Assembly: GCF_988243305.1 (NCBI RefSeq)
Contig: NZ_OZ547136.1
DNA length: 64,000 nucleotides
Reading direction: 5' to 3' (one strand)
The notes under the pieces were generated by a model, which was given only the letters and a program-made list of their open reading frames with translations, did no database searches and was not told the DNA's origin. The stretch's first letter is position 1; every line of letters begins with the position of its first letter. Of this stretch, positions 2,561 through 41,354 are shown piece by piece. The position numbers and the translations under genes are program-made.

Positions 2561-17189
<14,629 letters not shown>

Positions 17190-37290: not shown

Positions 37291-37359
37291 GCACGAGCTA
37301 TACTTAACGATAAAAAACGAGGAGGAAGCTCCTCGTTTTTGCTATTGGAGGAGAGAAAA

Positions 37360-38346
37360 ATGGGTCAACTGATTGACGGCGTCTGGCATGACACCTGGTA
37401 CGACACCAAATCCACCGGCGGTAAATTTCAACGTTCAGCTTCCGCATTTCGTAACTGGCTCACTGCCGATGGCGCTCCTGGCCCCACTGGCACAGGCGGT
37501 TTTATCGCAGAGAAAGATCGTTATCATCTCTATGTTTCACTCGCCTGCCCGTGGGCGCACCGCACGCTGATCATGCGCAAACTCAAAGGACTGGAACCGT
37601 TTATTTCCGTTTCCGTAGTGAACCCGCTGATGCTGGAAAACGGCTGGACCTTTGATGACAGTTTTCCAGGTGCAACCGGCGATACACTCTATCAACATGA
37701 ATTTTTGTATCAGCTTTATCTCCACGCCGATCCAGACTACAGCGGACGAGTGACTGTTCCCGTACTGTGGGACAAAAAGAACCACACCATCGTCAGCAAC
37801 GAATCAGCGGAAATCATCCGCATGTTCAATACCGCGTTTGATGCGCTGGGTGCGAAAGCTGGAGATTACTACCCACCAGCCCTGCAACCGAAAATTGACG
37901 AACTTAACGCCTGGATTTATGACACCGTTAACAATGGCGTGTATAAAGCCGGTTTTGCCACCAGCCAGCAAGCCTACGACGAGGCGGTAGTGAAAGTGTT
38001 TGAATCGCTGGCGCGACTGGAGCAGATTTTAGGCCAGCATCGTTACCTGACCGGCAACCAGCTAACCGAAGCCGATATTCGCCTGTGGACCACGCTGGTG
38101 CGTTTTGATCCGGTGTATGTCACCCACTTCAAGTGTGATAAGCACCGCATCAGCGATTACCTGAACCTGTATGGTTTCCTGCGCGATATCTACCAGATGC
38201 CGGGGATTGCCGAAACTGTCAATTTCGAACACATCCGTAATCACTACTTCCGCAGCCATAAGACCATCAACCCTACGGGGATTATTTCAATTGGTCCGTG
38301 GCAGGATCTCGATGAACCGCATGGACGAGATGTTCGCTTCGGTTAA
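37360..38346 (+). CDS. yqjG: glutathionyl-hydroquinone reductase (Xi-class GST)
   Basis: 328-aa product from ATG 37360 (MGQLIDGVWHDTWYD...), CPWA active-site motif. Confidence 0.9.
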   Translation: MGQLIDGVWHDTWYDTKSTGGKFQRSASAFRNWLTADGAPGPTGTGGFIAEKDRYHLYVSLACPWAHRTLIMRKLKGLEPFISVSVVNPLMLENGWTFDDSFPGATGDTLYQHEFLYQLYLHADPDYSGRVTVPVLWDKKNHTIVSNESAEIIRMFNTAFDALGAKAGDYYPPALQPKIDELNAWIYDTVNNGVYKAGFATSQQAYDEAVVKVFESLARLEQILGQHRYLTGNQLTEADIRLWTTLVRFDPVYVTHFKCDKHRISDYLNLYGFLRDIYQMPGIAETVNFEHIRNHYFRSHKTINPTGIISIGPWQDLDEPHGRDVRFG

Positions 38347-38389
38347 AAAAAGGCACCTTACGAGGTGCCTCTGATTATTAGCTAAGTGC

Positions 38390-38500
38390 ATGTTGTTCAT
38401 GTCGGATGCGGCGTGAACGCTTTATCAAACCTACAAAACATTTTATATTCAATATGTTGCAAGGACAGCGTAGGCCAGATAAGCGTAGCGCATCTGGCAA
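38390..38500. repeat. REP/BIME elements between yqjG and yhaH
   Basis: gtcggatgcggcgtgaacgctttatc and gtaggccagataagcgtagcgcatctggc palindromic units. Confidence 0.5.
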
Positions 38501-38637
38501 TTTTGCTTGTCATCAGTTTTAGCGCGCCTTCACAGCACCTTACTAATTCATTAAACGAATATTTACTGCCATTTCATTCACGTCTATTCTTAATTTGCTG
38601 CTTTAAAAACAAGTGATTGAGCAAAATTGAGGCAAAA

Positions 38638-39003
38638 ATGGACTGGTATCTGAAAGTACTAAAAAATTATGTCGGTTTCCGGGGTCGTGCGCGGCGCAAA
38701 GAGTACTGGATGTTTATTCTGGTCAACATCATCTTTACGTTCGTGCTGGGGCTGCTGGATAAAATGTTAGGCTGGCAACGTGCCGGTGGCGAAGGCATCC
38801 TGACGACAATCTACGGTATTCTGGTGTTTTTACCGTGGTGGGCGGTTCAGTTCCGCCGCCTGCACGACACCGACCGCTCGGCGTGGTGGGCACTGCTATT
38901 CTTAATCCCGTTTATCGGCTGGCTTATTATCATCGTCTTTAACTGCCAGGCGGGTACGCCAGGCGAAAACCGCTTTGGACCAGATCCAAAACTGGAACCT
39001 TAA
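38638..39003 (+). CDS. yhaH: DUF805 inner membrane protein
   Basis: 121-aa product from ATG 38638 (MDWYLKVLKNYVGFRGRARRKEYWMF...). Confidence 0.85.
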   Translation: MDWYLKVLKNYVGFRGRARRKEYWMFILVNIIFTFVLGLLDKMLGWQRAGGEGILTTIYGILVFLPWWAVQFRRLHDTDRSAWWALLFLIPFIGWLIIIVFNCQAGTPGENRFGPDPKLEP

Positions 39004-39244
39004 AACAAATCTGCTCGCCGGATGTCTGACTCATCCGGCTTTTATCATCATGTTGATGAATGAATAATTTACTAATGTTTATTTAAAATATTTCAATGTC
39101 GTTATATAAATTACCTATAAAAAATAACCATATATTTATCTTAAATATCAAAACCTTTATAACATCCGAAAAAGAAAGATACGAATAGCATTTACTCCAT
39201 CCCCGGAATAGACTTTCGCAACTTTTAATTAAAGGGATGTTTTT

Positions 39245-39601
39245 ATGCAGTGGTATTTAGCCGTATTAAAAAATTATGTTGGTTTCTCTGGTCGCGCACG
39301 TCGTAAAGAGTACTGGATGTTTACTCTGATTAACGCCATCGTCGGCGCTATTATCAATGTCATTCAATTGATTTTAGGTTTAGAGTTTCCATTCCTTTCT
39401 CTCATTTACCTGGCAGCAACAATCATTCCGGTCATTGCTCTGTGCGTTCGTCGTCTGCACGATACTGACCGTTCAGGTGCGTGGGCGCTTCTCTATCTGG
39501 TACCGGTCATTGGCTGGTTAGTTCTGTTTGTATTTGCCTGTTTAGAAGGTACTTCTGGCAGCAATCGTTACGGAAACGATCCGAAGTTTGGTTCAAATTA
39601 A
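39245..39601 (+). CDS. yhaI: DUF805 inner membrane protein, paralog of yhaH
   Basis: 118-aa ORF MQWYLAVLKNYVGFSGRARRKEYWMF... sharing N-terminal and RRLHDTDRS motifs with yhaH. Confidence 0.85.
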   Translation: MQWYLAVLKNYVGFSGRARRKEYWMFTLINAIVGAIINVIQLILGLEFPFLSLIYLAATIIPVIALCVRRLHDTDRSGAWALLYLVPVIGWLVLFVFACLEGTSGSNRYGNDPKFGSN

Positions 39602-39651
39602 TATTAAAATTGGGGCGATATTTCGCCCCTTTTTATTAACAATAACAAATA

Positions 39652-40548
39652 TTATTTTCCGCTAAAAAGTTTGGGAATTTCCCGCAGACACCAGGATTTC
39701 GCTTCCCCCATACTGTCACGACGCCAGGCCATAATAATATCGATCTCGCTGGTCGATTCTGGGCTGACGACACGCAACCGCCCTTCCGCAATATCTTTTT
39801 CGACCATCGGATACGGCATCGTCGCCACGCCAAGCCCCGCCAGTAATGCCTGACGTTTATCTTCAATCGTGCTCACCGTTAAGCGCGGCTGTTTGTCCAG
39901 CAGCTGTACGGTCAACACCGGGCGCTCACGAGCGGTATCTGCCACCGCAATACCACGATATTTCACGCGCGTCACTTCAGATAACGGTTCCGGCTCCTGA
40001 TGAATCGGGTGATCAGGCGCGGCAACGTAGACGTTCATTAACGTATAGAGCTTGCGCGAGTTGATCTCCGACGAGGAACGAAAATGCATATCCGGCGCGA
40101 TAACAATATCCGCCCGCCCCTGCTCCAGCCGTTCCCACGCCCCTGCCAGCACTTCGGTGATGATTGCCAGTTGGGTATTGGCTTTTGCCGCCAGTTTGTC
40201 GATTAACGGGAAAAAGGCAGGTGTCGGTACCAGCGCCTCGGTCACAATGGTGAGATGCGTTTCCCAACCGCGCGCGAGGGCTTCCGCATCGGTAGTCAGT
40301 TTATCTGCGGCTTCCAGCAAAACGCGCCCTCGCTCCAGCAACATCCTCCCGACATTAGTGAATTTGGTGCGATGGCCCGAGCGGTCAAACAGCACCACAT
40401 CCAGCTCTTCTTCCAGTTTTTGCATGGTGTAGCTAAGTGCGGAAGGCACGCGTCCCAGCTCATCCGCCGCCGCCGCAAAACTGCCCCGGCGATCGATCGC
40501 ATCCATAACCCGTAGTGCTTCCAGCGTTAATGCCCTTTCTTTGGCCAT
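39652..40548 (-). CDS. yhaJ: LysR-family transcriptional regulator
   Basis: 298-aa ORF with N-terminal HTH, divergent from yhaK. Confidence 0.9.
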   Translation of the reverse strand: MAKERALTLEALRVMDAIDRRGSFAAAADELGRVPSALSYTMQKLEEELDVVLFDRSGHRTKFTNVGRMLLERGRVLLEAADKLTTDAEALARGWETHLTIVTEALVPTPAFFPLIDKLAAKANTQLAIITEVLAGAWERLEQGRADIVIAPDMHFRSSSEINSRKLYTLMNVYVAAPDHPIHQEPEPLSEVTRVKYRGIAVADTARERPVLTVQLLDKQPRLTVSTIEDKRQALLAGLGVATMPYPMVEKDIAEGRLRVVSPESTSEIDIIMAWRRDSMGEAKSWCLREIPKLFSGK

Positions 40549-40652
40549 TTCGTTCTCATTCAGGAAATTTGAACATACCGGGCAGAATATCTGGCTAACA
40601 ATGTAGCGTCCAGCCCCTTACCATAAAAGGAAGTAAAGAGAGGTCAAGAATT

Positions 40653-41354
40653 ATGATTACTACCCGAACTGCCAGGCAGTGTGGACAAGCAGACTACGGA
40701 TGGTTGCAGGCCCGGTATACTTTTTCCTTTGGACACTACTTCGACCCGAAATTGTTAGGCTATGCCTCCCTGCGCGTGCTTAACCAGGAAGTGCTGGCCC
40801 CAGGTGCCGCCTTTCAGCCGCGAACCTATCCCAAAGTCGATATTTTAAATGTGATTCTGGATGGAGAAGCAGAGTATCGCGACAGCGAAGGCAATCATGT
40901 TCAGGCCAGCTCCGGTGAGGCGTTGCTGCTCTCTACCCAGCCGGGTGTCAGCTATAGCGAACACAATCTCAGCAAAGACAAACCGTTAACGCGAATGCAG
41001 CTTTGGCTGGATGCCTGCCCGCAGCGAGAGAATCCGCTGATTCAAAAGCTGGCGCTTAATATGGACAAGCAGCAATTAATCGCCTCGCCAGAGGGTGCGA
41101 TGGGAAGCCTGCAATTACGCCAACAAGTGTGGCTGCACCATATCGTGCTCGACAAAGGCGAAAGTGCGAATTTCCAGTTGCATGGGCCACGCGCGTATTT
41201 GCAATCGATTCACGGGAAATTTCATGCGCTTACGCATCATGAAGAGAAAGCGGCGCTAACCTGCGGTGATGGGGCGTTTATTCGTGACGAGGCTAACATT
41301 ACGCTGGTTGCCGATTCCCCACTGCGCGCTTTGCTGATAGATTTGCCTGTCTAG
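40653..41354 (+). CDS. yhaK: pirin-like bicupin protein
   Basis: 233-aa ORF matching K-12 YhaK. Confidence 0.9.
   Translation: MITTRTARQCGQADYGWLQARYTFSFGHYFDPKLLGYASLRVLNQEVLAPGAAFQPRTYPKVDILNVILDGEAEYRDSEGNHVQASSGEALLLSTQPGVSYSEHNLSKDKPLTRMQLWLDACPQRENPLIQKLALNMDKQQLIASPEGAMGSLQLRQQVWLHHIVLDKGESANFQLHGPRAYLQSIHGKFHALTHHEEKAALTCGDGAFIRDEANITLVADSPLRALLIDLPV

Follow-up and report, generated by a model that had tools for sequence, protein, structure and literature searches.

The occurrence of two small genes of the same family side by side raises the question of whether they arose by a recent local duplication or represent an older pair. This question is posed by yhaH and yhaI, which encode DUF805 membrane proteins in a 64,000-nucleotide stretch of DNA (hereafter the window; contig NZ_OZ547136.1 of RefSeq assembly GCF_988243305.1), whose overall GC content of 50.8% serves as the reference for spacer composition. 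Positions 37339-41354 correspond to the E. coli locus yqjG-yhaH-yhaI-(yhaJ, on the opposite strand)-yhaK, as the open reading frames (ORFs), the Pfam families and the K-12 annotation concordantly indicate. The original prediction for this region had taken the sequence blocks shared by the two proteins as a sign of tandem duplication. The analysis described here points to an anciently diverged pair of DUF805 genes that form separate transcription units and have unequal roles, an explanation that, taken as a whole, is considered reasonably probable.

The presence of two adjacent, same-strand DUF805 paralogs, as originally proposed, was confirmed by the ORFs, Pfam scores and BLASTP. The families encountered along the locus are GST, two DUF805, LysR and pirin, and the starts of yhaH and yhaI, both on the + strand, lie 607 bp apart. 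Both proteins cover the full DUF805 model (PF05656) with scores of 120.9 bits for YhaH and 109.8 bits for YhaI, far above the gathering threshold of 25.7 bits, and they are 54% identical to each other by BLASTP (E = 4e-45). YhaH is 100% identical in amino acid sequence to its K-12 counterpart, and in K-12 the genes yhaH (b3103) and yhaI (b3104), annotated as putative inner-membrane proteins, share with the window the same locus, gene order, spacer and terminators. The yhaI allele of the window is not that of K-12 but the second common one, which is 86% identical in protein sequence to the K-12 form and lacks its T7 run. A 1.6-kb query around yhaH-yhaI gave BLAST matches in 5,422 of the 5,426 complete E. 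coli genomes that were used for all population counts. Both are already annotated genes of a known family, and in this respect the original prediction restated what is already the standard annotation for these y-genes of E. coli.

Some details of that prediction required revision. For yhaH it placed the start at 38617, a TTG that lies upstream in the same frame; in K-12 the gene is annotated from the ATG at 38638, in agreement with the M-x-W-Y-L beginning of every aligned homolog. The predicted N-terminal block is found in both proteins and constitutes the only DNA-level repeat in the region. The second shared motif reads RRLHDTDRSAWWALL in YhaH, as proposed, and RRLHDTDRSGAWALL in YhaI, so that the ending S(A/G)WWALL was incorrect for YhaI.

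The proposal that the shared blocks indicate a tandem duplication was not borne out in the sense of a recent event, and in the sense of an ancient one it is unproven. DNA-level alignment of yhaH and yhaI, which had been named beforehand as the check on this proposal, gave a low identity of 56.7% over the codon alignment, with a proportion of synonymous differences (pS) of 0.78, which is saturated, and an undefined synonymous divergence (dS). Within the shared N-terminal block, 96 nt at 78% DNA identity, dS is still about 1.0, and the DNA similarity exists because the block encodes a near-invariant peptide that uses many W, Y, M, K and N codons. An alignment of 35 family members from the Proteobacteria, Bacillota, Actinomycetota, Bacteroidota and others revealed 13 invariant columns (Y11, R17, R20, E22, P66, R73, R74, H76, D77, S81, P91, N111 and G114), all of which are present in both YhaH and YhaI. 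The blocks that the two proteins share are family-wide motifs, found also in homologs from Bacillus, Streptomyces and Bacteroidota. Furthermore, YhaH and YhaI are 52-57% identical to each other, and either is 49-61% identical to homologs from Bacillus, Paenibacillus, Lysobacter, Halopseudomonas and Streptomyces. A neighbor-joining tree recovered a YhaH clade (E. coli, Salmonella, C. rodentium and Superficieibacter) with 100% bootstrap support and a YhaI clade (E. coli, Superficieibacter, Intestinirhabdus and C. rodentium) with 60%.

Gene content at the locus in other genera, with the contexts in C. rodentium, Superficieibacter and Intestinirhabdus taken from protein look-ups, adds to this picture. 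Citrobacter rodentium has DUF805 genes of 121 and 119 amino acids in the same slot, three DUF805 genes occupy the locus in Superficieibacter electus, Intestinirhabdus alba has the YhaI type only, and Salmonella has yhaH only, without yhaI. Because the pair is syntenic in Citrobacter and Superficieibacter, any duplication must predate these genera, and an old yhaH-yhaI pair with differential loss is the simplest account. A scan of a genome-contig collection with YhaI returned nothing above 58% identity and no Escherichia, so close relatives evidently escape either this collection or the exact-peptide patterns that were used.

The two genes also differ in constraint. YhaH is 86-87% identical in amino acid sequence to its Salmonella and C. 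rodentium orthologs, and yhaH differs from the K-12 gene with a dS of 0.024. Nonsynonymous divergence (dN) between E. coli and C. rodentium is 0.09 for yhaH and 0.31-0.34 for yhaI, and between genera YhaI has changed in amino acid sequence approximately 3.5 times faster than YhaH. GC content at third codon positions (GC3) is 0.41-0.46 in yhaI (0.41 in the window allele), as compared with 0.62 in yhaH and 0.57-0.63 in neighboring genes; in C. rodentium the GC3 of yhaI is normal, at 0.58.

It is very likely that yhaI is transcribed on its own. The earlier suggestion that it possesses its own promoter was supported by a hairpin that begins 14 nt past the yhaH stop codon (RNA fold -15 kcal/mol, z = -4.66) and by published differential regulation through Cpx and Ler. 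The spacer between the genes, in which GC content falls to a minimum of 16.7% over 120 bp, is approximately 96% identical to that of K-12, and the C. rodentium spacer is likewise AT-rich (29.6% GC). A G-rich, Shine-Dalgarno-like stretch, GGGATGTTT (GGATGTTT in C. rodentium), lies just 5' of the yhaI-type gene and is shared with C. rodentium and Intestinirhabdus. A scan of positions 38200-39800 against Rfam found no RNA family in the spacer.

Published expression studies are consistent with distinct regulation of the two genes. Upon Cpx activation in K-12, arrays showed 1.9-fold induction of yhaH and 3.2-fold induction of yhaI, and induction of yhaI reached 40.3-fold by quantitative PCR (PMC2731931). 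The spacer contains a CpxR-box-like site, ATAAACATTAGTAAA, that fits this induction. Ler is an antagonist of H-NS, and its activation of yhaI, together with the AT-rich upstream DNA, fits a silenced AT-rich promoter for this gene. In a study of enterohemorrhagic E. coli (EHEC), Ler raised yhaI expression 36-fold and yhaI was among only four responding genes outside of the locus of enterocyte effacement (extra-LEE genes; PMC3891560). A genome search showed that enteropathogenic E. coli (EPEC) E2348/69 lacks yhaI, consistent with the naming of yhaI, in the part of that study considered here, only among EHEC extra-LEE genes. In its AT-rich upstream DNA, low-GC coding sequence and induction by Ler and Cpx, yhaI resembles H-NS-silenced, Ler- or Cpx-activated accessory genes; it differs from them in that no mobile element carries it and that its position is conserved in other genera. 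As for yhaH, its mRNA in Salmonella is a validated target of repression by the small RNA SdsR, and YhaH protein climbs toward stationary phase (PMC5137417).

The new point to emerge here is that yhaI exists in three states within E. coli, a species in which yhaH is nearly invariant. Codons 47-110 of the window allele differ from K-12 at 48 positions in 180 bp, as compared with 0-2 differences per 60 bp in yhaH and 0-4 per 60 bp in the flanks. For this block dS is about 1.0 and dN is 0.18, and the alleles are as far apart there as the yhaH genes of E. coli and Salmonella. The population is bimodal for the 3' half of yhaI: 2,291 genomes show at least 95% identity to the window, 2,071 lie at 80-90% (the type of K-12 and O157:H7), and one falls between. 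A recombinant allele was also found (P0004). The dN/dS ratio between alleles, about 0.18, indicates that both are held under purifying selection, which suggests that the block is an old or imported haplotype rather than the product of rapid diversification. Gene conversion from yhaH was ruled out as its source, as neither allele resembles yhaH there.

In the third state, yhaI is absent. Here yhaH stands alone and ends in LEQE* instead of LEP*; a different hairpin and yhaJ come next (for example, in UPEC129, locus L004, positions 2190-2245). A full junction was found in 1,008 genomes, E2348/69 and O25b:H4-ST131 among them; these two belong to phylogroup B2, and the class looks lineage-bound. 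No counterpart of the approximately 40 bp and hairpin that replace yhaI was found in the window, and simple deletion is only a possible origin of this state.

Table 1. Features of the yhaH-yhaI region, with positions in the window unless another record is named.
Feature	Position	Strand	Description or basis
yhaH, 121-aa DUF805 inner-membrane protein, conserved paralog	38638..39003	+	ORF, Pfam, K-12 identity
yhaI, 118-aa DUF805 paralog, low GC, fast-evolving, dispensable	39245..39601	+	ORF, Pfam, GC3, dN
AT-rich 241-bp spacer, presumed yhaI promoter and 5' untranslated region	39004..39244	+	GC 28.6%
Intrinsic-terminator-like hairpin and T-run after yhaH	39017..39043	+	8-bp stem, 6 GC pairs, then TTTTAT
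CpxR-box-like site (GTAAA-N5-GTAAA, one mismatch)	39068..39082	-	Pattern search
Bidirectional terminator hairpin of yhaI and convergent yhaJ	39612..39629	.	7-bp stem, 6 GC pairs, T-runs on both strands, -15.9 kcal/mol
Mosaic block in yhaI (codons 47-110), differing from the K-12 allele at between-genus level	39383..39574	+	
Segment absent in ~1,000 genomes (yhaH stop, terminator, spacer, yhaI, terminator)	38999..39650	+	About 40 bp with a different hairpin instead
REP-like (repetitive extragenic palindromic-like) repeat region 5' of yhaH, more variable than the genes	38386..38500	.	GCCGGATGCGGCGTGAACGC-type sequence, K-12 comparison
Shiga toxin (Stx)-phage DUF805 ORF	L092 about 2985-3360; Shigella phage 75/02 Stx record 16349-16693		PHROG 12855 match

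Other variation was observed at the locus. The T7 run of K-12-type yhaI occupies nucleotides 287-293 (L001 3198-3204), a run that has no equivalent in the window allele, and T6 and T8 frameshift variants of this type (L096-L099), found in 345 contigs (P0061) and 190 contigs (P0077), lose the conserved C-terminal motif. Phase variation was not accepted as an explanation for these variants, as some of the carriers are long-read assemblies in which other genes also have odd lengths, and homopolymer sequencing error is as likely as real inactivation. In different strains, IS1 has inserted independently at three sites, of which two lie within yhaH and the third in the spacer between the genes (L003 1937-2698; L093 about 700-1477; L094 1007-2024). 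In addition, one strain (L002) has a yhaI pseudogene with an internal deletion, and another (L005) has undergone an IS26-bounded loss of the whole yhaH-yhaI region.

The family itself offers clues to how these proteins might act. YhaH and YhaI match PF05656 and COG3152 (DUF805, "YhaH family") over their full lengths with all invariant residues, and nothing sets them apart from typical single-domain members. The family, with about 51,000 clusters at 50% identity, also includes chains of multiple domains and zinc-ribbon fusions, which E. coli lacks. Many members (P0121-P0270) are single chains of 2-5 domains, connected by short linkers without a transmembrane segment, in which each domain keeps the strongly basic G-R-x-x-R-x-E-Y-W start; some carry zinc ribbons at the N-terminus, DUF2510 or a cyclophilin domain at the C-terminus. 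Of 69 unrelated loci, 6 contain DUF805 genes in tandem; such arrangements are seen repeatedly, in Polaribacter (with three consecutive genes), Hafnia, Aquimarina and Solirubrum. When Pfam and NCBIfam were scanned at low stringency, no match other than sub-threshold ones, such as DUF5684 and the VP0952 family, was obtained.

The DUF805 fold has no solved relative. An AlphaFold2 (AF2) model, with a predicted local distance difference test score (pLDDT) of 90.6, contains helices at residues 2-9, 20-44, 54-77, 82-89 and 93-103. Three hydrophobic segments are apparent (20-44, 54-77 and 82-103), the third being split in the model at P91. This third segment contains the invariant P91 and a near-invariant G94, and some homologs expand it to two full helices. 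YhaH was placed in the C-terminus-in pool of a green fluorescent protein (GFP) localization screen (PMC3225971). Taken together with the multi-domain chains, the zinc-ribbon fusions and the positive-inside rule, this assignment implies that both ends would be cytoplasmic, in which case the third segment would form a re-entrant hairpin.

These observations suggest the following scheme. The genes yhaH and yhaI would have been neighbors, flanked by yqjG and yhaJ, from a time before the split of Escherichia, Citrobacter and Superficieibacter, with one or the other lost later in some lineages. yhaH would be the conserved, generally expressed copy. yhaI, lying behind the yhaH terminator and the AT-rich spacer, would normally be silenced, probably by H-NS, a putative role suggested by base composition and the response to Ler; its activation by Ler and by the Cpx response to envelope stress is shown by the published work. 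Each protein is predicted to possess an N-terminal amphipathic helix and two transmembrane helices, followed by the probably re-entrant segment, and the invariant polar residues (G-R-x-x-R-x-E-Y-W, R-R-L-H-D, S and N-x-x-G-x-x-P-K) may form one cytoplasm-facing site. Because of the domain fusions and recurrent gene arrays, DUF805 proteins are proposed to work as oligomers, and stress-induced YhaI might join or replace YhaH in such an oligomer during envelope stress.

A phenotype has been reported for YhaH. A yhaH mutant of a wild E. coli strain resists phages PhiWec188 and PhiWec190, and wild-type yhaH restores sensitivity (bioRxiv 10.1101/2024.11.29.626071); in the follow-up paper, YhaH is presented as an inner-membrane protein that infection requires (PMC12695924). 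An intact, unannotated 124-aa DUF805 ORF (MRKSPLAWYTDVLF...) was found in Stx phages 75/02 and POCJ13, located in moron-like fashion on the strand opposite to the nin genes and present in only 8 of the 5,426 E. coli genomes. Inner-membrane host factors for phage genome entry include ManYZ for lambda, PtsG for HK97 and NfrB for N4. YhaH resembles these proteins in that it is located in the inner membrane, two Stephanstirmvirinae phages fail to infect in its absence, and the wild-type gene complements the defect. It is, however, not a transporter of known type, and the phage evidence concerns YhaH and not YhaI. PADLOC defense models gave no match at E <= 0.1 to YhaH, YhaI or the Stx-phage DUF805 protein.

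How do other explanations compare with that of an ancient pair? A recent local tandem duplication of one DUF805 gene, with the N-terminal block and RRLHD motif as its remnants, would account for the adjacency, common strand and similar length of the genes, for the 96-nt block and for the 54% identity of the proteins, but it is hardly credible in view of the saturated synonymous sites and the dS of about 1.0 within even the conserved block, the distribution of the shared motifs across phyla, the presence of both ortholog groups in Citrobacter and Superficieibacter, and an identity to proteins of distant phyla that equals that between YhaH and YhaI. A different possibility is that yhaI is a xenolog, a foreign DUF805 gene that was inserted with its AT-rich upstream DNA beside a resident yhaH and was later moved from one enterobacterial lineage to another by homologous recombination via the conserved flanks. 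Such an origin would explain the low GC3 of yhaI relative to its neighbors and the 29% GC content of the spacer, the variable presence of yhaI in E. coli with clean junctions, and alleles that differ at between-genus level inside about 190 bp, with a recombinant in existence. It is also in keeping with a tree in which YhaH and YhaI are not sisters, with activation by Ler, which is typical of H-NS-silenced foreign DNA, and with the carriage of DUF805 genes as morons by lambdoid Stx phages. Nevertheless, a xenologous origin is judged unlikely: the YhaI-type orthologs group in a single clade and are found at a common site in Citrobacter, Superficieibacter and Intestinirhabdus, a pattern for which vertical descent with losses is the simpler explanation, the segment is flanked by neither mobile-element remnants nor target duplications, and yhaI of C. 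rodentium has the normal GC3 noted above. Alternatively, variation in yhaI may be driven by phages, if DUF805 proteins are inner-membrane phage entry factors and the alleles and loss of yhaI are kept by phage selection. The resistance of the yhaH mutant to PhiWec188 and PhiWec190 and its complementation, the intermediate frequency of each of the two alleles and of the absence state, the independent IS1 insertions in yhaH and the spacer, and the existence of a prophage-borne DUF805 ORF could all be understood in this way. This seems quite improbable, however, because the gene linked to phage infection is the nearly invariant yhaH, the yhaI alleles show purifying and not diversifying selection, the absence class that includes ST131 and E2348/69 looks lineage-bound, PADLOC yielded no match, and the prophage copy is so rare. 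A broader version of this idea, that DUF805 proteins are general phage-exploited inner-membrane portals, that the three yhaI states, IS1 insertions and Stx-phage morons reflect balancing selection or superinfection exclusion, and that YhaI is a stress-inducible decoy or alternative subunit that alters phage susceptibility, is best treated as a highly speculative proposal with little probability.

Several observations also weigh against the preferred reading of an ancient, separately transcribed pair. A foreign origin would also be in keeping with the low GC3 and AT-rich flank of yhaI, and the failure of the YhaH and YhaI clades to group as sisters, in a tree with unsupported deep nodes, makes descent from a single local duplication no more than a possibility. 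With respect to regulation, a promoter scan of the spacer found no consensus sigma-70 promoter, which may be as expected of an activator-dependent promoter; 11 one-mismatch CpxR-type boxes were observed in the window as compared with 3.55 expected, making the spacer box weak evidence; and all expression data on yhaH and yhaI come from strains other than that of the window. With respect to the oligomer model, the N-in/C-in topology clashes with the usual reading of three transmembrane segments, a survey of 80 DUF805 loci across many phyla found that no neighbor is conserved except further DUF805 genes, so that guilt by association offers no lead, and AF2 modeling of a natural two-domain DUF805 protein (predicted template modeling score 0.52, with a disordered linker) did not support a defined domain interface.

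If the pair is indeed old, the evolutionary reading of the locus is corrected: the duplication is ancient and the conserved blocks are family motifs. A three-state polymorphism and different regulation, which distinguish yhaI from yhaH, are now documented. The widespread, uncharacterized DUF805 family becomes tied to one concrete phenotype, the need of phages for YhaH, and to a testable model of topology and oligomerization, and both the phage link and the yhaI polymorphism provide starting points for assigning a function to DUF805.

A few observations concern the surroundings of the pair. The yhaJ gene was induced 2.0-fold in the Cpx study (PMC2731931), and two overlapping one-mismatch CpxR-type boxes are located at 40623-40647 in the divergent yhaJ-yhaK intergenic region. 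The only Rfam match in the scanned interval was a sub-threshold isrD match at 38346-38390 on the - strand (24.6 bits, with a gathering threshold of 37; E = 0.035), which lies on the hairpin that follows yqjG and probably represents only a terminator-like stem. Between yqjG and yhaH, positions 38376-38553 contain 25 differences from K-12 in about 180 bp, the genes on either side being far less diverged. The REP-like repeats upstream of yhaH are also the reason for the extra BLAST places per genome, and yhaH has been described as "surrounded by repeat sites" (PMC11551758).

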